DNA from: Candidatus Limnocylindrus sp.
Lineage (GTDB): Bacteria; Chloroflexota; Limnocylindria; Limnocylindrales; Limnocylindraceae
Length of the DNA: 34,276 nucleotides
Direction of reading: 5' to 3'
Assembly (NCBI GenBank): GCA_046086645.1
Contig: JBJSXZ010000072.1
Span: forward strand, 1 to 34,276
Under the pieces are notes generated by a model that saw nothing but the letters and a program-made list of their open reading frames with translations, was not told where the DNA came from and did not search any database. How positions within the stretch are numbered: the stretch's first letter is position 1; each line of letters opens with the position of its first letter. Shown piece by piece: positions 4,409 through 34,158 of this stretch. The position numbers and the translations under genes were made by a program.

Positions 4409-4588
4409 CAGCTCATGTTTGGGCAGGCGACGCGTTAGCGGGCCGCGCCAGCAATGCCGAAGGGTACGTCGATGTGGAGAAGATACATCGCGCCTTGGCT
4501 CGCATGTGTGCTCATTCTCGCAATACTCTAGCGGATGCTCTCAACCACGCGCATCACAACCAGTCATGCAAACTAAACGTTGAGTTGG

Positions 4589-13341: not shown

Positions 13342-14532
13342 TTAGCGCTTTCGAAGTCGCGACGTTCTGTGCGAACGTGTTCGCGCCTGGAGCACGATGG
13401 CAGAAAGTGCAGCTGCCATGAAGGATGCTGCGAGTACTCCAACCTTTGCCGCGCCAAGTGACGCAGGATCTGAAAACGCGAGTTCACTAATGAGTAGTGC
13501 AACGGTGAAACCGATCCCTCCGAGGGTGCCGACGATCGCGATGTCGACCCACTGCACGCCGTTGGGGAGCCGAGCACCAGCGAGTGCCGCCATCAGGCGC
13601 GCGGTAATCAAGATGCCGAGCGGCTTTCCAACAAACAGCCCAACGACTACCCCGAGGAAGATTGGCGAGTTGATTTGGGCGGCGCCACTCAGTGTGCGGA
13701 GATCAACCGCGGCCGCAAAGAGGGCAAACGCCGGGACCGCGACCCCCGCGCTGAACGGGTGGAGGCGCTGAGAAACGCGCTCAGCAGGCGCACGCTCTTC
13801 GCGCGGATCTCTTCGGACCCGCGTCAAGAGGCCGAGCACGACGCCAGCGACCGTTGGATGGATACCAGCGTTATGCACCGCAAGCCAGGCACAGAGCGCC
13901 AGTGGGAGGTAGATAAGCACGTGCGTGAGGCGCAGGCGTTGCGCCACCGCATATGCCGCAAACGCCAATAGGGCAACAATGAGCGAGGCAATGTCAATGC
14001 TCCCAGAATAGACAAGTGCGATGACCAAGATGGCGCCAAGGTCATCAACGACGGCGAGGGTGAGGAGAAAGGCACGAACCCCAACTGGAAGCGCTCGGCC
14101 AAAAATGGCGAGGATTGCCAGGGCGAAGGCGATATCGGTTGCCATCGGAATACCCCAGCCGATCAGGTTCGCTGTTTCGTGGGCGTTCAGCAGCACGAAG
14201 AGCGCTGCTGGAAGCACCATGCCGCCAACTGCAGCAGCGATTGGTAGGGCTGCCTGCGCAGGGGTTGCGAGAGATCCGAGCACAAGCTCGTGCTTCAGCT
14301 CGCAGCCGATCATGAAGAAGAAGATCGCAAGCAGCCCGTCCGATGCCCACTCCTGAATCGTCAGATCGAGATGTAGCTGGGCGGGCCCAATGCGCGTCTC
14401 TGCAATCGAGCGGAAGAGCTCTGCCAGCGGGCCGCTCGCAAGCATGATGCCGGCAATCGCCGCCGCTATGAGCGCGCCTCCACCCACTGCCTCGCTGCGG
14501 AGGAACTCCGAAAGACGGTGTCGCTCGCTCAT
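13342..14532 (-). CDS. nhaA: Na+/H+ antiporter NhaA
   Basis: SEAVGGGALIAAA .. WASDGLLAIFFF .. GIPMATDIAFALA .. LAVVDDLGAI are typical NhaA blocks. Product is 396 aa. Confidence 0.9.
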   Translation of the reverse strand: MSERHRLSEFLRSEAVGGGALIAAAIAGIMLASGPLAELFRSIAETRIGPAQLHLDLTIQEWASDGLLAIFFFMIGCELKHELVLGSLATPAQAALPIAAAVGGMVLPAALFVLLNAHETANLIGWGIPMATDIAFALAILAIFGRALPVGVRAFLLTLAVVDDLGAILVIALVYSGSIDIASLIVALLAFAAYAVAQRLRLTHVLIYLPLALCAWLAVHNAGIHPTVAGVVLGLLTRVRRDPREERAPAERVSQRLHPFSAGVAVPAFALFAAAVDLRTLSGAAQINSPIFLGVVVGLFVGKPLGILITARLMAALAGARLPNGVQWVDIAIVGTLGGIGFTVALLISELAFSDPASLGAAKVGVLAASFMAAALSAIVLQARTRSHRTSRLRKR

Positions 14533-14579: not shown

Positions 14580-16127
14580 TCATTGCCAACTTTGGATAAG
14601 GAGCATCGCTGCGCCGGCTCCAAGCGGCAGGTTCAGCACGAGGAAGCGATGCCACGCCGATCGAGCATCGCGAACTGGATTGCGACTCACGATTATTTGA
14701 ACGACATTGAGAGCGCTGATAAAAGGAAGGATCGCAGCGATTCGAACAAGGAGATCAACACTTATCACGAGCACCAGAGCGGCGGCACCATAAAGTGCGA
14801 GCGATGCGAAGCCTGCCGCTCGAGCCCCAATCCACGTAGCGGTCGTTGCAATCCCAGATCGCCGGTCGGCAGAAATGTCCTGGATAGCACCGAGGATATG
14901 GTTCGCCATATTCCAGAGAAAAAATGCGAGGAGTGCGGGGAGCCAGCTCCCGTTGAGGGTTACTGCAAACGCAAGGCCAGAGGCGACAGGCAGGAGGAAG
15001 TGCGTTGCAGAGGTAAGTGAATCCACGATCGGGATCGACCGTGTTCTCAGCATCCAGGGGGCGCTGTAGATCGCGGCACTGCCAACGGCCATGAGCGGGA
15101 ACCAGCCGATCGGCGAGGGGAGCACGAGTAGCGCGGCAAGCGCTGGCGCCAGGCCAATCACTAGGAGTAGCCACCGCATTGGCCGCACGTCGCTTCGCAT
15201 GAGCCGTGCCCCTTCGACGCCACCCTTCCGTGGGTTGAGTGCGTCGGTCGCGGTGTCGTAGAGATCGTTAATACCGTAGAGGAAAAAGTTGTATCCAACG
15301 CCCCACCAGAGCGCGAGGGGAATAATCGCGGGACCAATGGCCTCAACGTAGCCTGTTGCGAGTGCGGCGCCGAGAAACGGCAGGATCGTGTTTGTCCACG
15401 CGAGTGGCCTTGATGAGAGAAACAATCGCCACACCTGGTCTTTTGATGCTGCGATGGCTGACAGAGCAAACAACGCAATGGTGCAGAACGAGTATGCATA
15501 GATAAGATCTTCGATCGGAACACTGAGCAGGTAGATATTGAGATTTGTTCTCTCTGGATAAGAGAAATAGCCCGCGGAGCAAAGAACGTTGTCAAACACC
15601 AGGGTGAAGAAGAGGAAGATCGCAATGGTGATCCAGCTCCCTCGAACACGAAAATGATTGAATGCCAAGCCGCTCGCTGCTGCTGCAAGGGCGAGCATAG
15701 ATCTTGTGTATGCAGGGAATGCTCCGGGAGCGGCGATGATGACAGCTGCAGCAGTGAGGCCGAAGAGCAGTGAGCGACGATTCAATCCAGCAGCGCGGTT
15801 TCGAGCGGGCGACTTCACGTACGTGCTGACGGCTGCGGAGAGAACGAGCGAAAACTGCGCGAGGAAGGCGAGGAGAAGCGGCTCTTCGAGTGGCAGGCCG
15901 GTGTCGTACGGCCCTACGCCGGGGAACATTGCACTGCTTAGTGCACGCGGCGTGTAGAACCACCCGCCAGCAATGCCAGCCATGTCTACGAGGAGGAAGA
16001 GCGTGACCATGATGGTGATGAAGGGGTAGGCGTGCGCCCTCGTAGTGGCGAGGCGCAGCCGGCGAGCCAGGGCGTGGGTCCCAACAGCCGACACTGCGAT
16101 TGTTACAAGATAGAGAAACCCGTGCAT
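14580..16127 (-). CDS. fusion protein: two lycopene-cyclase half-domains (CrtYc/Yd or CrtYe/Yf type) + CrtEb/LyeJ-type lycopene elongase (UbiA prenyltransferase)
   Basis: The N-terminal part (about 16127-15443) carries two hPhE(E/D) signatures, LPLEEP and VPIEDL, each in a 3-TM half. The C-terminal part (about 15442-14580) carries SSRPLAWTNT, YGINDLYDTATDALNPRKGGVEGA (NxxxDxxxD) and LGAIQDISADR (DxxxD). ATG 16127 is preferred over the 16226 start, as it follows a G9-AG tract acting as an SD. Confidence 0.75.
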   Translation of the reverse strand: MHGFLYLVTIAVSAVGTHALARRLRLATTRAHAYPFITIMVTLFLLVDMAGIAGGWFYTPRALSSAMFPGVGPYDTGLPLEEPLLLAFLAQFSLVLSAAVSTYVKSPARNRAAGLNRRSLLFGLTAAAVIIAAPGAFPAYTRSMLALAAAASGLAFNHFRVRGSWITIAIFLFFTLVFDNVLCSAGYFSYPERTNLNIYLLSVPIEDLIYAYSFCTIALFALSAIAASKDQVWRLFLSSRPLAWTNTILPFLGAALATGYVEAIGPAIIPLALWWGVGYNFFLYGINDLYDTATDALNPRKGGVEGARLMRSDVRPMRWLLLVIGLAPALAALLVLPSPIGWFPLMAVGSAAIYSAPWMLRTRSIPIVDSLTSATHFLLPVASGLAFAVTLNGSWLPALLAFFLWNMANHILGAIQDISADRRSGIATTATWIGARAAGFASLALYGAAALVLVISVDLLVRIAAILPFISALNVVQIIVSRNPVRDARSAWHRFLVLNLPLGAGAAMLLIQSWQ

Positions 16128-16249
16128 CTCCCCCCCCCGTGCGTACTGCGTGCGCGTCGCTTTCGATGGTACAAGCCGCAACGTCAATTTCGTATCACCA
16201 TATGGCAACATAGACGTGCAGCACATGCTGCCTAAATGAGGGGGAAACT

Positions 16250-16990
16250 ATGGAGCCAGTGCAGGCATATCAGTTGGTCTACAACTTGATGTCGCTCTCT
16301 ATTGCTGCAATGGGCAGCAGCTTCTTCTTCTTCGTCTCAGCGCGTAGCGCGCTGAAGCCGGAGAATCGCATGGCGGTAACGCTTTCAGCAACAGTCGTGC
16401 TGATCGCCCTCTACCACTATGTCCGCATCTTTAACTCGTGGGTAGACACCGCGGGTGGCACACTCGGCACCTTCAATGAAGCGTACCGCTACGTTGACTG
16501 GATCCTCACGGTCCCACTCCTCGTGGCAGAGTTGGTCCTGGTTCTGCGCCTCGACAGCAAGCTCGAGAGCATGTTGATCAAGCGCAACGTTGTCTACGCA
16601 TTCCTCATGATTGCGACAGGCTACATAGGCGAGATGGACGAGCAGACAACTGTCGTCCTCACGTCAGCCCGTACAATTTGGGGATTCATTAGTTCTGTCT
16701 TCTTCGTCTTGATTCTCCGCGACCTCTTCGGCGGTATCGCGGTTTCAATCAAGAAGCAGAGCAAGGAGATCCAGGGGATCTTCCGCATCCTACGTGTCGT
16801 GCTACTCGCGACATGGGGCGTTTATCCGATCGCGTACCTCTTGCCAACCATCACCACAAGCATCGGCCTCTCGGTGGCTGACGGTATGGTGTTGAAGCAG
16901 GTGGGCTACACGATCGCTGACATCTTGGCCAAGCCAGGCTATGGCCTTCTGATCTGGAAGATTGCTACCCTGAAGGACAAGGGCCGCTGA
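16250..16990 (+). CDS. microbial rhodopsin, DTE-motif light-driven proton pump (actinorhodopsin / proteorhodopsin-xanthorhodopsin-like)
   Basis: Product is 246 aa with 7 TM segments. AYRYVDWILTVPLLVAELV gives D83/T87/E94. It also has His56 (LYHY), Leu91 at the PR-105 position, and Schiff-base Lys228 in GYTIADILAKPGYGLLIW. SD GAGGGGG (16238-16244). Confidence 0.9.
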   Translation: MEPVQAYQLVYNLMSLSIAAMGSSFFFFVSARSALKPENRMAVTLSATVVLIALYHYVRIFNSWVDTAGGTLGTFNEAYRYVDWILTVPLLVAELVLVLRLDSKLESMLIKRNVVYAFLMIATGYIGEMDEQTTVVLTSARTIWGFISSVFFVLILRDLFGGIAVSIKKQSKEIQGIFRILRVVLLATWGVYPIAYLLPTITTSIGLSVADGMVLKQVGYTIADILAKPGYGLLIWKIATLKDKGR

Positions 16991-17257: not shown

Positions 17258-18250
17258 ATGAACGTTAAAGACTGGACACGTGTTTTCGATGACAACTCCT
17301 TGACGATTGGTCGTACGCCGCTAGTCAAGCTGCATCGCGTTACCGATAACGCAACCGCAACAGTTTTCGCAAAGATTGAGGGCCGGAACCCCGCCTACTC
17401 GGTGAAGTGTCGCCTTGGCACTGCAATGGTGCTCGATGCTGAGAAGCGCGGCGTCCTTAAACCCGGCAAAGAGATTGTGGAGCCAACGAGTGGCAACACG
17501 GGCATTGCCTTGGCGATGGTGGGGGCAGCCCGTGGCTACAAGGTGACGCTCACGATGCCTGAGACGATGAGCATTGAGCGACGAAAGCTGCTAGTTGCCT
17601 ATGGCGCAACGCTCGTCCTCACCGAGGGTGCAAAGGGCATGTCTGGTGCGATTGCGAAGGCAGAGGAGATTGCTGCCTCCGATCCCGATCGCTATGTACT
17701 GCTGCAACAGTTCAAGAACCCCGCTGGACCGGCAATTCATGAGTCGACGACGGGACCAGAGATCTGGGACGACACCGAGGGGAACGTCGACATTTTCGTT
17801 TCTGGCGTTGGCACTGGCGGTACGATTACCGGCGTTGCTCGCTACCTTAAGAACGGCCGCAAGAAGAACGTGCATGTTGTGGCAGTTGAGCCAGCAACGA
17901 GCCCTGTCATTGCGCAGCGCCTCGCGGGTCAGCCGAACCAGCCTGCACCGCACAAGATCCAGGGGATCGGCGCAGGCTTTGTGCCCGACATTCTTGACCT
18001 CTCACTCGTCGACCAGGTGGAGCCAGTGACGAATGAAGAGGCGATCGCCATGGCGCGTCGCATTGCCCGCGAAGAGGGAATTCTCGTTGGCATCTCGTGC
18101 GGTGCAGCTGCGCATGTGGCGATCAAGCTTGCACATCTTCCCGAGAATGCGGGCAAGACAATCGTGGTTATATTGCCAGACTCAGGTGAGCGATATCTCA
18201 GCACTGCGCTCTTTGAGGGAATGTTTGGGCCAGACGGTCTGCCGCTATGA
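17258..18250 (+). CDS. cysK: cysteine synthase A (O-acetylserine sulfhydrylase)
   Basis: [14 protein letters not shown] (PLP lysine), [11 protein letters not shown] and [10 protein letters not shown]. Confidence 0.92.
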
Positions 18251-19131
18251 GCAAGGAGATCGCAGCAGCACTGCTTGCCGCTGATGCGGCGGTGGCAAGC
18301 GCAGCGGTGGTGGCCGAAGACCGCCCCTCGCGGGGGGAGATCTCCCGCGTGATGGGCGAGCTGCGTGCTGCACTCTTCCCGCGCGAGTTAGGGCTTGCCG
18401 CGCGAGGGGAGGCGGCCGTTGCCTCCCATCTCCAGGAGGCACTCGACGGGCTCAATGAGCAGATCAGGCGTTGCGCTGTGCTCTTCGCGGCGGAGCGGCC
18501 AGGCAGGGGCGCCGCGCTTCCAGCGGACGCTGCAGCGATCGCAGGGGAGCTCGCAAGGGCACTTCCTGAAATCCGAAGGAAGCTCGAAGGCGATATCAGC
18601 GCCGCATTTGATGGGGATCCCGCTGCACAGAGTCGCTCAGAGATCCTGCACGGGTATCCGGGTGTTCGTGCGATCACCGACCACCGCATAGCGCACGTGC
18701 TCTATCAATTGGGCGTGCCACTACTCCCGCGCATTGCTGCGGAGTCGGCACACTCGGCCACGGGCATTGACATTCACCCCGGTGCAACGATTGGCGAGCG
18801 GTTCTTCGTTGACCACGGAACAGGGGTTGTTATCGGCGAAACGGCAATCATCGGCAGCGATGTACGTCTCTATCAAGGTGTAACGCTCGGGTCGAAGAGC
18901 TTCCCACACGCAGATGACGGCACCCTTGCAAAAGGAAGGCCACGCCACCCGATCATTGAAGACCGCGTCGTTATCTATTCTGGTGCGACGGTGCTCGGCA
19001 GGATCACCGTTGGTCACAACTCAACGATAGGCGGCAATGTGTGGCTGACGCGGAGCATTCCGCCGTATAGCAACATCTCGCAAGCACGAACGCGGGCCGA
19101 AGATCTTGTAGGCGAAGGACTCGGCATTTAA
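18247..19131 (+). CDS. cysE: serine O-acetyltransferase (long N-terminal form)
   Basis: [23 protein letters not shown] followed by hexapeptide repeats [35 protein letters not shown] overlap with cysK. Confidence 0.88.
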
Positions 19132-29260: not shown

Positions 29261-30142
29261 TCAGCGGCGCTTCCTTGATCTAGTTGGCGTCTCACTGCGG
29301 AGCGTACGGTACGTCCAGCCTATGGCTGTTACCCAGAGGGCGATGATGACGACGTAGGCACCGAGGAACACCTCGCCAGATGCCCCAACTGCTGCAAGCA
29401 GGACGCGCGCGTTGGTGAAGCAGATAAACCCACCTACCGTCACCCCCAGCAGGCGTGGATTGAGATGGCGAACAAGATAGGCGGCAATCGGCGCTGCAAT
29501 GAGGCCGCCTGCTAGCAGTGCCAACACAAACTCAATGCGTACCCCTTCGCCGCCGAGCGATGTGAAAAACCCGAGGCTTGCTGAAATTGCAACGATGAAC
29601 TCACTGGCGCTGACCGTGCCGATCACGCGGTTAGGTGCGAGCCGCCCGTCGGCAAGCAGTGTCGGCGTTGTCGTGGGTCCCCAACCTCCACCACCCGTAG
29701 CATCGATAAATCCGCCGATGAGTCCGAGCGGGGCGAGGAACTTGAGGCCAGGGAGGCCGGCTCGCTGCACACGCGCTCGGACGAAGAGGAAGCGTGCAAG
29801 CACGTAGAGCCCAAGGATAAAGAGAATGGTGCTTGCCATTGGCTTTGCCGCTTCGGTAGAGATCGATGAGAGAAGTGTTGCACCAGAAAACGCGCCGATC
29901 CCACCAGGGATCGCAATGCGCCGAACGACCGACCAGTCCACATTGCCAAAACGATGATGGGAGATTCCCGAGAGGGCAGTTGTCCCGACCTCGGCAAGGT
30001 GCACCGACGCAGATGCCATAGCCGGCGTCAACCCCGCAAAGATCAGCAGGGTAGATGAGGTGAGCCCGTAGCCCATCCCGAGTGACCCGTCGACGAATTG
30101 AGCTGCCAGACCGGCAATCGCCACCACGATCAAGGTTTGCAT
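29261..30142 (-). CDS. TauE/SafE (TSUP) family anion permease
   Basis: FVDGSLGMGYGLTSSTLL .. FIDATGGGGWGPTTTPTL is the duplicated TSUP pattern. SD GGGAGG. Confidence 0.85.
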   Translation of the reverse strand: MQTLIVVAIAGLAAQFVDGSLGMGYGLTSSTLLIFAGLTPAMASASVHLAEVGTTALSGISHHRFGNVDWSVVRRIAIPGGIGAFSGATLLSSISTEAAKPMASTILFILGLYVLARFLFVRARVQRAGLPGLKFLAPLGLIGGFIDATGGGGWGPTTTPTLLADGRLAPNRVIGTVSASEFIVAISASLGFFTSLGGEGVRIEFVLALLAGGLIAAPIAAYLVRHLNPRLLGVTVGGFICFTNARVLLAAVGASGEVFLGAYVVIIALWVTAIGWTYRTLRSETPTRSRKRR

Positions 30143-30158
30143 GCTGCCTCCCTACCTT

Positions 30159-30191
30159 GTGAGTATTAACTACATAATATAGTGAGAATAC
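30159..30191. promoter_or_regulatory. AT-rich repeat cluster upstream of tauE (candidate promoter/operator)
   Basis: GTGAGTATTA (30159-30168) and GTGAGAATAC (30182-30191) are direct repeats. They flank TATTA-N6-TAATA (30164-30179). A minus-strand TATATT lies at 30181-30176. Confidence 0.3.
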
Positions 30192-30318
30192 AGACTAAGG
30201 TTGATGGCGTCAACGAAGCGTCCGGACATTGCCATTGGAGCGCCGATCAGGGAGTTTAGGGTTTGCAGGACTTTTTCAAGGGCATGGCGTCAGCGCGATG
30301 CGGGGGTCTTGGGGGGCG

Positions 30319-30768
30319 CTAGCGCCACGCGCTCGGGTTGTCGAGGAGGCGCTTGATTCGGGCTGGGAAGCGTTGGGCAACAGCATCGGCAATCGAGACC
30401 CCCTCGAGGATCTCGCGCTCGGCCGCACGAATGGCGATAAGCACCTCGCGGAGCCCCTTTGCCGCCCCCTTGTAGTTGAGCTGCTCTGGCCGTGTTCCGG
30501 CGACGTTCGTGAGTGTGCCGTCTACCGCGCGAATGACATCGGCTAGGGTGATGAGTTTCGGGCTCTTTGCAAGCGCCCAACCCCCCTCAACGCCACGTCG
30601 GGCGGTCACGATCCCTGCGCGACGCAGTTGTGCGAGCACGGCTCCAAGATACGAGGCGGGAATCCCCTGGCTCTTGCCGAGGGCAATCGTGGTGAGGGGT
30701 TCGTCCCCGGCAACCGCAAGTTCCATGACGGCTCGCAGTGCATAGTCGGTCCGACTTGTAAGGCGCAT
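30319..30768 (-). CDS. Rrf2-family transcriptional regulator without Fe-S cysteines (CymR-like)
   Basis: MRLTSRTDYALRAVMELA .. IPASYLGAVLAQLRRAGIV is an Rrf2 wHTH. There is no Cys in the 149-aa product. ATG 30768 has TATGCT 6 nt upstream. Confidence 0.88.
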   Translation of the reverse strand: MRLTSRTDYALRAVMELAVAGDEPLTTIALGKSQGIPASYLGAVLAQLRRAGIVTARRGVEGGWALAKSPKLITLADVIRAVDGTLTNVAGTRPEQLNYKGAAKGLREVLIAIRAAEREILEGVSIADAVAQRFPARIKRLLDNPSAWR

Positions 30769-30811
30769 GCATGCAGCATACTGGTACACAATAGAACCAG
30801 GAGGAGCAGTT

Positions 30812-32023
30812 GTGAGCGATAGTGCGAAGCGCAGGGAAATCAATCCAATTCCAGCACCTGGCGTACTCCTTCATATTGGACCTCCAAAAACCGGTACGAC
30901 TGCGCTGCAGCAGACGTGCCATACGCTCCGTGCCGCCATGCTCGAGCAAGGAGTTCGGTATGCGGGTGATGAACAACAACCTTCGACTGCTGTGTTCGCC
31001 GTGACTGGGCGAACACATCCGAGTACGGGGAAGGTTCCGTCGCTTCGCCATTGGACCCAGTTGCGAGACGAGGTTGTGAACGCGAAAGAGCAGCGGGTTC
31101 TGGTAAGCAGCGAGTTCTTTGCTGGCGCAACGAGCGAACAGGCCACTAGGATAATCCGTGAACTCGGTGGAGACCGCGTACGGGTTCTCATCACACTCCG
31201 ACCGCTGGCAAAGATTCTTGCTTCGCGGTGGCAGCAGAATGTGCAAGAAGGTTCAGTTCCCACCTATTCCGACTGGCTCACCGCCGTGTTGAACGATCGT
31301 GGAAGTGAGCTCAGCCAGAAATTCTGGTCGCGACAACAGCACGCAGAACTCGTGAGCCGCTGGGCGCGCGTGGCTGGCCCAGATCGCGTCACTGTCCTTG
31401 TCGTTGACGACGCGCATCGCAACGCTCTCTTGCGCGATGTTGAGCAGTTGCTCGCGCTTCGATCAGAGACACTTCAATTATCTTCTGTTGACTCGCTCAA
31501 CCGCTCACTGACCGCTCCAGAAGTTGAAGCAATCCGCATGTTCAATGTTGCATTCAAAGCAGCGAACCTTTCGAAAGCGCTCCGGTATAAGCTCATGTCT
31601 CGTGGCGGGGCGCAGCTCTTGAAGACCCGAACTCCAGAGCCGAGCGAGGCGCGAATTCTCACCCCTGCATGGGCCGATACTGCAGCACAAAACATTGCCC
31701 AAGAGATGATTACCGAGATTGCGGCGACCGGCGTACGGATCATCGGCGACCTCTCTCTGCTCGGGAGGGGGCTCGATCCATCCGCAATTGGTGAGATAGA
31801 TGACGCAGGGTTAAAGGTCGCGCCAGAGACTGCAGCATCACTTGCCATGGGCGTGCTGATCGCCACGGGTGCAGGGCGTGGATATGAGCGTGGTTCGAGG
31901 CTGCCAGCTTGGACAGAGCCGGAGGAGTTAAAGCGTGTTCCCACGCGCAACCTCGTGCGCGTAGTGCTGCAACGGCAGGTTCAAGGCCTGCTCCTTCGCG
32001 TGCGCAGCCTAATTCGACGCTAG
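30812..32023 (+). CDS. sulfotransferase-like protein, paralogue 2 (uncharacterised ~400-aa family)
   Basis: LHIGPPKTGTTALQ is a PAPS 5'-PSB loop and ITLRPLAKILASRWQQ is 3'-PB-like. GTG 30812 lies 7 nt after AGGAGG (30799-30804). The ATG 30767 start would overlap the rrf2 start. Confidence 0.65.
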   Translation: MSDSAKRREINPIPAPGVLLHIGPPKTGTTALQQTCHTLRAAMLEQGVRYAGDEQQPSTAVFAVTGRTHPSTGKVPSLRHWTQLRDEVVNAKEQRVLVSSEFFAGATSEQATRIIRELGGDRVRVLITLRPLAKILASRWQQNVQEGSVPTYSDWLTAVLNDRGSELSQKFWSRQQHAELVSRWARVAGPDRVTVLVVDDAHRNALLRDVEQLLALRSETLQLSSVDSLNRSLTAPEVEAIRMFNVAFKAANLSKALRYKLMSRGGAQLLKTRTPEPSEARILTPAWADTAAQNIAQEMITEIAATGVRIIGDLSLLGRGLDPSAIGEIDDAGLKVAPETAASLAMGVLIATGAGRGYERGSRLPAWTEPEELKRVPTRNLVRVVLQRQVQGLLLRVRSLIRR

Positions 32024-33279
32024 GAGCTGAGGAGCGCCTTCACCTGGTCGACAGCCGATTCGATGCTCACCAGAGAAGCGTCGATCACCAGGTCGGCGTC
32101 TGCAGGAATCTCATAGGGCGACGAGATGCCGGTGAATTCGGCGATCTCCCCGGCGCGCGCCTTTGCGTAAAGGCCTTTTCGGTCGCGAGCCTCGCAGATC
32201 TCAAGCGGCGTGCTTACGTAGATCAGGTAGAACGGGGCGACGCCAGCAGCGAGCGCGCGTGCCGCTTCGCGACTCTCAGCAAATGGCGCAATCGGTGCGG
32301 CGATTGCAATTCCTCCGCCCCGCGCGACCTCTACTGCAGCTTCGGCAATGCGCGTCACGTTGGTATTGCGCGCGGCACGGTCAAAGCCAAGACCGAGCGA
32401 GACCCGCCTGCGCATTGCGTCGCCGTCAAGAAGGTGGACATTGGCTGCGCCGTCATCGCGCAATGATTCAGCGAGCGAGCGAGCGATTGTTGACTTTCCC
32501 GAACCAGAGAGTCCAGTAAAGAAGACAACTGCCGGTTGACTCCACGTACCAGACGCTGCTGCTTCAACTTCGCGTGTTGATGCGAGAGTCAGCTCGCTTG
32601 CGCTGCGCACAGCTCCAACTGGCGCTCCCACAACGAACTGCGTCGACTTCTGCGCACCATACGCAGCAAGTGCGCGGAGAAGCCGCGCATCATCGTTGAG
32701 CGGTGCGCCTGGTTGCGCATGTGGCCACGGGAGGATGAGGAGCTCGACTCTTGCACTCGGGAGGTGTTGGCGAAGTTCGTCTGAAGCAGCGATTAGGCTG
32801 CGCGTTAATCCTGCGGCGCCAACCTCCCCCATGTGCGCAGCCTTCCGCGATACGAGCCCGACGATGATGATGCGCGATACCCTCGGCGCCGCACTCTCCG
32901 CCGCGCGGACGATCGCTTCGATTTCGGCGGTACTTGGCGGAAGCACAGCCACAAATGCGATATCGAACGGGGCCGTGTCGGTGGCTGCCGCATGGCGAAG
33001 TGCGGGATCCCACTGTGGGCCGAGCCCACGGGCGAGCGGCTTTAATGGAGTGAGCCCTACGCTACCCGTTGACGAAACGCTGATCTCAGCCAGCGGGGTG
33101 TTCTCCTCATCGCTGAAGGTGCACCGCCGTGCTCCCTGAGGGGCGAGATCGAGAACGTCTGCAGGCTCTGCCGCCCCGCTCAACACGAGTTCCAGGCGGT
33201 CGAGTCCTGCCTCGTCCAGGATGACCGCGCTCGTGCCTCCGTTGCCAGTGCTGCCCGCCAGCGTTTGATCAGATCGCAT
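32020..33279 (-). CDS. cysC: adenylylsulfate (APS) kinase with ~215-aa N-terminal ATP-sulfurylase-like, apparently degenerate, domain
   Basis: C-terminal half: VVFFTGLSGSGKSTIA .. LDGDAMRR .. FTGISSPYE. N-terminal half: LELVLSGAAEP, IIIVGLVSRK and VELLILPWP, but no HxxH. Confidence 0.85.
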   Translation of the reverse strand: MRSDQTLAGSTGNGGTSAVILDEAGLDRLELVLSGAAEPADVLDLAPQGARRCTFSDEENTPLAEISVSSTGSVGLTPLKPLARGLGPQWDPALRHAAATDTAPFDIAFVAVLPPSTAEIEAIVRAAESAAPRVSRIIIVGLVSRKAAHMGEVGAAGLTRSLIAASDELRQHLPSARVELLILPWPHAQPGAPLNDDARLLRALAAYGAQKSTQFVVGAPVGAVRSASELTLASTREVEAAASGTWSQPAVVFFTGLSGSGKSTIARSLAESLRDDGAANVHLLDGDAMRRRVSLGLGFDRAARNTNVTRIAEAAVEVARGGGIAIAAPIAPFAESREAARALAAGVAPFYLIYVSTPLEICEARDRKGLYAKARAGEIAEFTGISSPYEIPADADLVIDASLVSIESAVDQVKALLSS

Positions 33280-33285
33280 AGTGGG

Positions 33286-33302
33286 AGATTACCCCCTAAT
33301 CT
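33286..33302. promoter_or_regulatory. inverted repeat AGATTA-CCCCC-TAATCT = two back-to-back TANNNT -10 candidates
   Basis: The minus-strand TAATCT (33291-33286) lies 6 nt from the cysC ATG at 33279. The plus-strand TAATCT (33297-33302) lies 7 nt from the cysQ ATG at 33310. Confidence 0.4.
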
Positions 33303-33309
33303 GCTCACC

Positions 33310-34158
33310 ATGACATCAGAGAGGAATCCGGACCACGATGATGCGCAGCTCGCCATCCGCATTGCGGAGGCGGCCGCAGCGTCGCTCAGGGGTTTGCGCG
33401 ATACGGCTCCGGTTCACCCTGCAACGTTTGACGCAGCTGCTCTCCGCGCCGCAGGCGACGCAGAGACGAACATGTTGATCGAGAGCATGTTGAGGAGCGA
33501 GCGGCCTACCGACACAATTCTCTCCGAGGAGTCAGCAGATTCCGAACAGCGGCTCTCGGCAGAGCGGGTCTGGATCATCGATCCACTTGATGGGACACGT
33601 GAATATGGCGAGCGCGACGAGCGGGGGGTCTGGCGAGATGATTTCGCCGTCCATGTTGCACTCTGGGAGCGAGGCCGCGGGCTGACCGTCGGGGCCGTGT
33701 CGTTGCCAGCACGAAACATCACATACACCACTGCAAACCCACTGCCGCTTCCACGCGAATCGAGTGGCACACTGCGTGTTGCGGCGAGTCGTACCCGACC
33801 ACCAGAATTCTTAGCGCGCTTGCGCGACGCTGGACGCATAATCCTTGTGCCGATGGGCTCGGCCGGCGTGAAGGCGATGTCGGTACTCGACGGGAGCGCC
33901 GACGCCTACATCCACGCTGGTGGCCAGTACCAGTGGGATTCAGCGGCCCCCGTCGCGGTCGCCTGCGCCGCGGGCGCTGTGGCAACCCGGCTTAACGGCG
34001 AGCCGATCGTCTATAACGGCGCAGAGTTGCTCGTGCCCGATCTTGTCGTCGTCCACCCCTCCCGTGCGGCAGAGGTGCGTGCCCTTCTCGTTGAGGCTGC
34101 CGACGAGAACGGTGGCGCAGGTGTATCTGCCGCGACTGGTGCAGAATCTCCTGCATGA
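33310..34158 (+). CDS. cysQ: 3'(2'),5'-bisphosphate nucleotidase (PAP phosphatase) CysQ, inositol monophosphatase family
   Basis: LSEES .. VWIIDPLDGTREY .. WDSAAP. ATG 33310 avoids overlap with the cysC start. Confidence 0.85.
   Translation: MTSERNPDHDDAQLAIRIAEAAAASLRGLRDTAPVHPATFDAAALRAAGDAETNMLIESMLRSERPTDTILSEESADSEQRLSAERVWIIDPLDGTREYGERDERGVWRDDFAVHVALWERGRGLTVGAVSLPARNITYTTANPLPLPRESSGTLRVAASRTRPPEFLARLRDAGRIILVPMGSAGVKAMSVLDGSADAYIHAGGQYQWDSAAPVAVACAAGAVATRLNGEPIVYNGAELLVPDLVVVHPSRAAEVRALLVEAADENGGAGVSAATGAESPA

Follow-up and report, generated by a model that had tools for sequence, protein, structure and literature searches.

The DNA analysed here, referred to as the window, is a stretch of 34,276 nucleotides from Candidatus Limnocylindrus sp. 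(GenBank assembly GCA_046086645.1, contig JBJSXZ010000072.1, positions 1 to 34,276 of the forward strand). It carries a rhodopsin gene divergently paired with a gene for a single polypeptide that is predicted to unite both subunits of a C50-type carotenoid cyclase with a lycopene elongase. A preliminary description of the window had reported this divergent pair, 122 bp apart, and its presence was confirmed. The features concerned are given below, with lengths in amino acids (aa) and residues of the fused protein numbered from its own start.

16250 to 16990, plus strand: predicted light-driven proton pump of the xanthorhodopsin family, 246 aa, Pfam Bac_rhodopsin
16128 to 16249: divergent intergenic region of 122 bp between the starts of the fusion and the rhodopsin
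16218 to 16231: hairpin GCAGCA-CA-TGCTGC with a 6-bp stem, in the rhodopsin 5' leader
14580 to 16127, minus strand: CrtYe·CrtYf·CrtEb fusion, 515 aa, start at M34 of the longest open reading frame (ORF)
15813 to 16127, minus strand: CrtYe-like cyclase half, residues 1-105, three hydrophobic helices, L78-P-L-E-E-P83 with P79, E81 and E82 invariant
15708 to 15812, minus strand: linker, residues 106-140, poorly conserved, with an extra hydrophobic helix (118-141), joining the three-helix halves
15432 to 15707, minus strand: CrtYf-like cyclase half, residues 141-232, with FDN (178-180) and P204-I-E-D207
14580 to 15431, minus strand: predicted CrtEb-type lycopene elongase, residues 233-515 plus stop, UbiA PF01040 58 bits
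Fusion residues 78-83, cyclase half 1: LPLEEP
Fusion residues 203-208, cyclase half 2: VPIEDL
Fusion residues 238-247, UbiA part: SSRPLAWTNT
Fusion residues 284-303, UbiA part: YGINDLYDTATD...NPRKGG
Fusion residues 415-422, UbiA part: IQDISADR

The longest ORF on the minus strand (14580-16226) would encode 548 aa. This reading, starting at 16226, was rejected: the homologues begin at M34, and the 33 extra codons overlap the conserved hairpin of the rhodopsin leader. The start at M34 is supported by all seven aligned database homologues, which begin with the methionine of codon 16127, and by a G-rich ribosome-binding run just ahead of it. The preliminary description had proposed a fusion of about 515 aa, made up of two cyclase halves and a UbiA prenyltransferase, and both its extent and its domains were upheld. 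The motifs quoted there are all present, and are invariant across homologues that are 42-99% identical.

Each cyclase half resembles a specific subunit of the actinobacterial enzyme. The first half (residues 1-112) aligned with Rathayibacter CrtYe by BLASTP (E 1e-8, 36% identity), while residues ~165-216 of the second matched CrtYf (E 9e-6). Profiles were compared using hhalign, with 25 fusions on one side and 65 CrtYe and 73 CrtYf sequences drawn from 81 actinobacterial loci on the other. Half 1 matched CrtYe with a probability of 97.1% (E 8e-11) as compared with ~2% for CrtYf, and half 2 matched CrtYf with a probability of 98.9% (E 1e-17), the cross pair again scoring ~2%. Half 2 was also recognised by Pfam Lycopene_cyc PF18916 (29.2 bits, cut-off 27) and TIGR03462 (43.1 bits, cut-off 39.4). 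Half 1 was not detected by Pfam or NCBIfam models; a bona fide CrtYe itself reaches only 15.8 bits, which indicates that the Pfam model is insensitive to this subunit. A hidden Markov model (HMM) of half 2 gave a median of 44.5 bits on CrtYf versus 11 bits on the sole C40-type comparator, a haloarchaeal two-domain CrtY-like ORF that is presumed to be a C40 cyclase. The PxE(E/D) motif is invariant in each half (P79-L-E-E82 and P204-I-E-D207). Hydropathy analysis shows a 3+1+3 pattern of cyclase helices. The linker between the halves is the least conserved segment (22-34% identity between clades) and nothing equivalent to it exists in the stand-alone CrtYe (105 aa) and CrtYf (102 aa). We infer that its helix lets both three-helix halves keep the same membrane orientation within one chain.

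In the UbiA part, both aspartate-rich motifs are invariant (N287-D288-x-x-D291-x-x-x-D295 and D417-x-x-x-D421). The NCBIfam models NF009608 (CrtEb-type), NF010119 and NF009516 (LyeJ-type) scored 196, 125 and 110 bits respectively, whereas all models for quinone, chlorophyll and lipid UbiA enzymes remained below 35 bits, the next best reaching 34 bits. The same three elongase models lead for two proteins verified by genomic context: the CrtEb of Rathayibacter festucae, whose gene lies inside a C50 cluster (477 bits with NF009608), and the LyeJ of Natrinema, flanked by a CrtD-like oxidase and a CruF-like protein (466 bits with NF009516). The model scores therefore place the UbiA part in the lycopene elongase clade, nearer the bacterial CrtEb type; clustering with non-carotenoid prenyltransferases, which the preliminary description had considered, was not observed. 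The closest stand-alone relatives are actinobacterial "prenyltransferases" of Microbacteriaceae, 37-44% identical. A search of the PDB matched no solved lycopene elongase or CrtYc/d-type cyclase, and returned only a weak match to chlorophyll synthase.

The preliminary description had raised the prospect of an assembly or frameshift artefact. The fusion is intact in 25 GTDB species genomes as well as in independent JGI, ENA and Logan assemblies; this recurrence, together with a ratio of nonsynonymous to synonymous divergence (dN/dS) of 0.22, argues that it is genuine. For neighbouring genes with similar dS, the corresponding ratio is 0.07-0.17 (window versus 87%-identical relatives). The fusion is under purifying selection, yet it is the fastest-evolving gene of its neighbourhood. 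An exhaustive HMMER search found the full three-part fusion in 3 clusters among 1.84 billion cluster representatives, and 7 clusters were found in a 5.8-billion-protein database. GTDB, searched with one genome per species, yielded 25 loci, all from Chloroflexota metagenome-assembled genomes (MAGs). The three-part fusion is confined to this Chloroflexota lineage. One apparently truncated fusion of 416 aa, at locus L200, was discarded as such, being due to a scaffold gap of Ns (~4430-4530); gaps of this kind could make MAG surveys under-count the fusion.

The order of the three domains is that of the separate genes: crtYe, crtYf and crtEb follow one another within 1.2 kb at 72 of 72 actinobacterial loci. 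In Rathayibacter festucae, the cluster comprises idi, crtE, a fused crtB-crtI, a 105-aa gene, a 102-aa lycopene cyclase domain gene and a UbiA gene. Another type of fusion within the same family joins one cyclase half to the elongase (376-429 aa). As judged from these architectures, the three-part protein takes a fusion-prone pathway one step further and does not represent a novel type of enzyme. We also observed many CrtEb-type elongases fused C-terminally to a family-2 glycosyltransferase (612-719 aa; P0021, P0026, P0029, P0031 and others), an arrangement that would couple elongation with glycosylation of C50 carotenoids and of which no description was found in the literature consulted.

The partner gene was found as previously described: the ORF at 16250-16990 on the plus strand encodes a 246-aa rhodopsin (Bac_rhodopsin PF01036, 128.6 bits) with the DTE residues D83, T87 and E94, as well as H56 and K228. 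Residues H56, D83, T87, E94, D224 and K228 align to H62, D96, T100, E107, D236 and K240 of xanthorhodopsin (XR) and are invariant in 22 orthologues, the Schiff-base lysine K228 on helix G (XR K240) thus being present in 22 of 22. The top match in the PDB was xanthorhodopsin (3DDL, 189 bits), followed by Gloeobacter rhodopsin (180 bits) and Kin4B8 (156 bits), and the identity to Salinibacter XR is 47%. The protein is predicted to be an outward proton pump of the xanthorhodopsin family. In XR, the small side chain of G156 opens a pocket (fenestration) beside the retinal ring for the ring of the antenna carotenoid. The preliminary description had proposed inspecting the equivalent position, and a small residue is indeed kept there: G145, along with the adjacent W144, is invariant in 22 of 22 sequences. 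Nine XR residues are listed as salinixanthin contacts (PMC4094778); five of these are identical here (L137, G145, F146, L186 and G190), two are conservatively replaced (S149 and L197) and two differ. Mehrshad et al. (2018) described the rhodopsins of several freshwater Chloroflexi groups, including SL56, as xanthorhodopsin-like and possibly antenna-binding; as many as 10 of the 12 residues that bind salinixanthin were conserved in one or more rhodopsins of a set that includes SL56 (PMC6169038).

A recent horizontal transfer of the rhodopsin was considered, since the protein is 78-86% identical between clades as compared with 41-49% for the fusion, and its synonymous divergence is lower (between-clade pS 0.54-0.64 versus 0.70-0.75 for other genes). 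Transfer was rejected by comparison with phosphoenolpyruvate carboxykinase (PEPCK), which is 75-81% identical between the same genomes with a pS of 0.70-0.74. As the identity of PEPCK is similar to that of the rhodopsin, the pace of the rhodopsin is that of a housekeeping gene, and it is the fusion that evolves fast. The GC content at third codon positions (GC3) of the rhodopsin is 0.75-0.79, against 0.63-0.67 in other genes of the window and of the metagenome contig L001. High GC3 combined with low pS is consistent with the strong codon bias of a highly expressed gene, rather than with transfer.

The rhodopsin lies divergently upstream of the fusion at 19 of the 19 GTDB loci with enough upstream DNA; the other six of the 25, without a visible rhodopsin, each have less than 1.1 kb of upstream DNA. 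The pair is also present in three metagenome contigs reached from the fusion side (L001-L003), and a search starting from divergent rhodopsin variants led to three further contigs, all three of which carry the fusion. The preliminary description had allowed for the fusion being equally common beside unrelated genes, but it was never found away from the rhodopsin. The surroundings of the pair fall into three types:

Window clade: metallophosphoesterase (with cysK-cysE inserted in the window itself), then the pair, then NhaA-DinB
Second clade: UbiA632-P450-DUF1761, then the pair, then MsrAB
Main Limnocylindrus clade: GpsA-Der-IspH, then the pair with DUF4332 and Lit-like genes between the partners, then MoeA-MoaC

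These clades differ by 19-25% in PEPCK. The pairing is lineage-specific and has survived rearrangement of both flanks at least twice. It is hardly credible, in our view, that the adjacency is chance synteny inherited in one family and devoid of selective meaning. All examples do come from one lineage of related streamlined genomes, and no second independent lineage shows the pairing: a rhodopsin occurs within 10 kb of crtEb at 0 of 81 actinobacterial loci, two from Aurantimicrobium included. However, 26 of 26 informative loci keep the pair (among them 19 of 19 in GTDB and six metagenome contigs) with flanks that differ among three clades, and in the window clade cysK-cysE became inserted next to the rhodopsin with the pair still unseparated. 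The Aurantimicrobium type strain itself carries an XR-like rhodopsin (PMC7734400).

Two of the contexts bring further genes close to the pair. A DUF4332 gene and a gene for a Lit-like/TIGR01906 membrane protein lie between rhodopsin and fusion at most Limnocylindrus loci (8941-10001 in L001). At the Limnocylindrus loci, the fusion start overlaps the Lit-like stop and the fusion stop overlaps the MoeA start, which suggests one operon. In a sub-clade (L200 5624-9195; L015, L016), the rhodopsin is followed on the same strand by DUF1761, a cytochrome P450 and a protein of 632 aa whose N-terminal part is a UbiA domain, a group that may represent a larger pigment-tailoring cluster. The 632-aa protein was examined as a possible elongase and set aside, as it is not elongase-like. 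A DUF1761 gene also occurs 8 kb from the rhodopsin-blh pair of a Polymorphobacter plasmid (L119).

Both promoters must lie in the 122-bp spacer, although no sigma-70 consensus promoter was detected within it. A G9 run (16130-16138, minus-strand reading) stands just before the fusion ATG and is G7 in two related contigs. The spacer is 92% identical among the window and contigs L003 and L004, as compared with ~72-75% at synonymous sites of the flanking genes (pS 0.25-0.29), and is therefore under constraint. In every clade (L001-L028, L200-L202), a GC-rich hairpin precedes the rhodopsin ATG by ~20-45 nt, directly behind a -10-like box and ahead of a strong GGAGG. A stem of 5-6 bp is kept while its sequence is clade-specific (GCAGCA/TGCTGC, GTGGC/GCCAC, GCGGC/GCCGC, GCGAUC/GGUCGC); it looks like a conserved 5'-leader stem-loop, possibly an mRNA stabiliser or a regulatory site.

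A tight divergent arrangement with a conserved spacer would be in keeping with regulatory cross-talk between opsin and elongase, with divergent co-expression matching the amounts of the two proteins in the same membrane patch. The precedent for this, cited in the preliminary description, is real: in Halobacterium salinarum, as relayed from Dummer et al. 2011 in PMC6212597, the bacterio-opsin apoprotein inhibits lycopene elongase, so that lycopene is diverted to retinal when the opsin lacks its chromophore. The UbiA domain does fall in the same elongase clade as LyeJ. However, the precedent concerns one archaeon only, whose opsin and elongase are both distant (LyeJ-type 110 versus CrtEb-type 196 bits), and such control presupposes an endogenous branch from lycopene via beta-carotene to retinal, which was not found at these loci. 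Cross-talk of this type is compatible with other readings, and we regard it as very unlikely to account for the pairing.

The preliminary description had found neither blh/brp nor crtE/B/I in the 34-kb window, and Pfam searches of every major ORF agree. An HMM built from 120 Brp/Blh proteins gave no match among the six-frame ORFs of at least 60 aa in the window (positive control, 381 bits), nor was there any Blh (PF15461) match in 30 related loci covering 405 kb from ~25 species. The genomic partner of the rhodopsin is thus a C50-branch-type enzyme instead of a Blh dioxygenase, as had been suggested, and the sole lycopene cyclase domains seen at these loci are those of the fusion. The supplementary carotenoid-gene tables of Mehrshad et al. 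cover only Chloroflexales (PMC6169038), and a 2026 study of Limnocylindria makes no mention of retinal or carotenoids (PMC13212565).

These results bear on the idea that the fusion could belong to an unrecognised chromophore route, whereby a cyclised product (C50, C45 or a C40 side product) would be cleaved by some oxygenase to retinal or an analogue. Aurantimicrobium minutum possesses an XR-like rhodopsin, crtYe/Yf and crtEb but no blh or diox1, and still makes retinal; Nakajima et al. proposed such a route for it (PMC7734400), and blh is likewise missing from the majority of Luna-1 Actinomycetota that carry rhodopsin and crtEb (PMC12422013). The lack of Blh around the module and the restriction of cyclase domains to the fusion point the same way. 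On the other hand, the module is not linked to any cleavage enzyme. A cyclic C50 carotenoid cut at its centre would give a ring-substituted C25 aldehyde and not retinal, and the asymmetric cut required is purely hypothetical. Retinal scavenging is, moreover, common among streamlined freshwater bacteria (PMC12422013). Overall, a role for the fusion in making the chromophore appears distinctly unlikely.

In freshwater Chloroflexota of the Limnocylindrus type, the two genes make up a conserved pigment module. The locus is firmly predicted to encode an elongase-plus-cyclase single chain beside a proton-pump opsin whose carotenoid pocket is open. Biochemical work on CrtEb and CrtYe/Yf (Krubasik 2001, Netzer 2010), to the extent that it is summarised in PMC6393565, provides the basis for a conversion of lycopene to an acyclic and then a cyclic C50 carotenoid. 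By analogy, the UbiA domain would add C5 units from dimethylallyl diphosphate (DMAPP) to C-2 and C-2' of lycopene, giving an acyclic flavuxanthin-type C50 intermediate, and the fused pseudo-heterodimeric cyclase would close its ends into rings. The predicted product is a cyclic C50 carotenoid of the decaprenoxanthin, sarcinaxanthin or C.p.450 type. Fusion would set a 1:1:1 stoichiometry and might pass the intermediate straight from elongase to cyclase. The carotenoid could then bind at the Gly145 fenestration and the helix E/F surface of the rhodopsin, as a second chromophore (antenna) or a stabilising ligand, and might also act as a photoprotectant in that membrane, while the source of retinal would lie elsewhere, in genes beyond the locus or in the environment.

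We consider it plausible, though short of an even chance, that what holds the pair together is the role of the cyclic C50 carotenoid as partner pigment of the pump, either antenna or bound ligand. This partner-pigment explanation is favoured because the fenestration glycine is invariant and the contact set partly conserved, because the fusion gene left the crtEBI cluster to adjoin the opsin, and because ActR-13023, from a crtEb-bearing lineage, binds its native carotenoid. This actinorhodopsin, which has the equivalent glycine, shows faster initial pumping with the native carotenoid bound (PMC8113403).

The two genes might alternatively be independent light-related genes, the C50 carotenoid having no other task than to protect the membrane from light or to make it more rigid, as in Corynebacterium, Micrococcus and Arthrobacter. 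Their proximity would then reflect co-arrival or co-retention in sunlit fresh water, perhaps with a shared light or stress promoter. To our knowledge, bacterial C50 carotenoids have no role beyond photoprotection and membrane effects. Limnocylindraceae acquired rhodopsins at their freshwater transition (PMC13212565), the closest stand-alone elongases are those of Microbacteriaceae, where the gene is unlinked to rhodopsin, and in the main clade two genes unrelated to the pair lie between its members, with the fusion overlapping Lit-like and MoeA genes. This explanation sits less well with a pair that outlives rearrangements of both flanks, with an invariant fenestration glycine, and with an intergenic region that, in the window clade, is better conserved than synonymous sites. 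It also leaves aside the split of the fusion from crtE/B/I, its cluster mates in Rathayibacter, none of which is present in the window or the called genes of L001-L003. We hold such independence to be doubtful, albeit worth weighing.

Several observations count against a partner pigment made by the fusion. The antennas characterised so far have a C40 skeleton and a 4-keto or 3-hydroxy ring, and we know of no C50 antenna, nor of any cyclic C50 carotenoid tied to a xanthorhodopsin by experiment or structure. A C50 ring is bulkier, with an extra C5 substituent at C-2, which may make its fit at the pocket doubtful. The two XR contacts that differ are changed from N191 to I180 and from M211 to T200. 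With 196 bits, the UbiA part falls below the NCBI curated CrtEb cut-off of 217 (NF009608); as a divergent member, its exact substrate and product should not be assumed. The genes for lycopene synthesis, crtE/B/I, were not located, either in the window or in the genes called on L001-L003. With regard to the linkage, freshwater Actinomycetota that have both an XR-like rhodopsin and crtEb keep them unlinked (0 of 81), so linkage is not required for the function of either gene. These genomes are streamlined and their genes tightly packed, and the main Limnocylindrus clade has an apparent operon in which Lit-like and MoeA genes, unrelated to the fusion, overlap it; neighbourhood is thus weaker evidence here than in large genomes. 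A more far-reaching reading, namely that the cyclic C50 carotenoid is the physiological second chromophore of these rhodopsins (which would be the first C50 antenna, with its synthase wired to the opsin) or, in blh-lacking genomes, the entry to the postulated retinal pathway, strikes us as somewhat unlikely.

The host is a Limnocylindrus-related member of the Chloroflexota, and its relatives among the fusion-bearing MAGs are mostly named Ca. Limnocylindrus or Ca. Aquidulcis. The preliminary description had framed the locus in terms of actinorhodopsins; this has to be corrected, the host not being an actinorhodopsin-bearing actinobacterium. In a scan of one genome per GTDB species, the nearest fusion-bearing MAG was "uncultured Chloroflexi Ki3-D1_bin-0051" (87%). 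The window PEPCK is 97% identical to that of Ki3-D1_bin-0051 and 75-81% identical to those of Limnocylindrus-group MAGs. The remaining ~30 genes of the window have housekeeping or transport functions, with no carotenoid or retinal gene among them by Pfam and NCBIfam, even at lenient thresholds. They include:

13342 to 14532, minus strand: NhaA Na+/H+ antiporter gene on the strand of the fusion, starting 47 bp downstream of it, with DinB next
pstSCAB-phoU and a two-component system
DinB and NhaA
cysK, cysE, an ABC exporter and a GTP-PEPCK
an ABC importer, TauE and Rrf2
an APS (adenosine 5'-phosphosulfate) kinase and an inositol monophosphatase-family protein

The NhaA-DinB arrangement is common to the window, L003 and L004 and is absent from the Limnocylindrus clade, so that only in the window clade is a proton pump the neighbour of a proton-driven sodium exporter. 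On the other side, cysK-cysE (17258-19131) lies between the rhodopsin and the metallophosphoesterase in the window and is absent there in the 87-94% related contig L003, the result of a recent local insertion or deletion beside the module. A sulfur-assimilation neighbourhood occupies 29261-34158, with a TauE exporter, an Rrf2 regulator, an APS-kinase-domain protein and a CysQ-like phosphatase. The APS-kinase protein has 419 aa, with the kinase domain C-terminal and an N-terminal half without domain assignment. A PAPS reductase lies directly beyond the window end (contig L118). Mehrshad et al. reported sulfur-assimilation genes to be absent from most freshwater Chloroflexi MAGs (PMC6169038).

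In lakes, Limnocylindria (the SL56 cluster) rank with the abundant bacteria of the plankton, and light capture in fresh water is partly due to their rhodopsins. The locus offers a compact handle on which carotenoids, if any, serve fenestrated xanthorhodopsin-like pumps as antennas, and likewise on chromophore supply in rhodopsin bearers without blh. For carotenoid engineering, the fusion is a predicted single-gene converter of C40 to cyclic C50 carotenoids; balancing the expression of crtYe, crtYf and crtEb is a known difficulty (PMC6393565).

Compared with known systems, the module is closest in enzyme content to the CrtYe, CrtYf and CrtEb proteins of the decaprenoxanthin type in Corynebacterium glutamicum and Microbacteriaceae. 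Gene order, half-specific homology, and the PxE(E/D) and Asp-rich motifs are common to both. Here, in contrast, they form one polypeptide with a linker helix, away from crtE/B/I and beside a rhodopsin, in a Chloroflexota host, and the UbiA part, with no more than 37-44% identity to actinobacterial CrtEb, scores under the curated cut-off. The C.p.450 pathway of Dietzia sp. CQ4 (LbtA and LbtBC) likewise includes a natural in-frame fusion of a cyclase subunit with the elongase, LbtBC, which has been termed unique (PMC6393565). In that case a single cyclase subunit is fused, LbtA is separate and there is no rhodopsin linkage, whereas both subunits are fused here.

On the rhodopsin side, Salinibacter ruber XR with its salinixanthin, Gloeobacter rhodopsin and Kin4B8 share the DTE motif, the His-Asp counter-ion pair, the fenestration glycine and five of the nine salinixanthin contacts. 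The antennas known for XR-type pumps are C40 keto- and hydroxy-carotenoids, while the enzyme described here is predicted to make a C50 ring-substituted pigment. The XR-like rhodopsin (XLR) of Aurantimicrobium minutum and the Luna-1 actinorhodopsins (ActR-13023) also belong to streamlined freshwater photoheterotrophs that combine an XR-like pump with crtYe/Yf and crtEb, often without blh (PMC7734400, PMC12422013). In these organisms the crt ORFs are separate members of a crt cluster, and no rhodopsin lies closer than 10 kb (0 of 81), whereas in Limnocylindria they are fused and paired with the opsin.

The bop-lye system of Halobacterium salinarum, by the second-hand account given above, likewise ties a rhodopsin to the C50 branch point, through inhibition of the elongase. 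Archaeal LyeJ, however, belongs to a different sub-clade (NF009516), works with CrtD and CruF towards acyclic bacterioruberin, is unfused and is not adjacent to bop. In archaerhodopsin-2, the C50 carotenoid bacterioruberin is bound between the subunits of the trimer. Rhodopsin-blh operons (the Polymorphobacter plasmid, SAR86 and proteorhodopsin clusters) resemble the present locus in that a carotenoid-pathway gene directly flanks the rhodopsin. The canonical partner is a same-strand Brp/Blh beta-carotene 15,15'-dioxygenase, whereas the Limnocylindria loci lack Blh and the partner is drawn from the competing C50 branch. No mention of the three-part fusion or of the opsin pairing was found in the literature on this lineage (including PMC6169038 and PMC13212565) or on C50 pathways. 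Although the families of the components and a partial cyclase-elongase fusion are already known, a fusion of all three proteins is new, and so is the finding that it is invariably paired with a fenestrated xanthorhodopsin.

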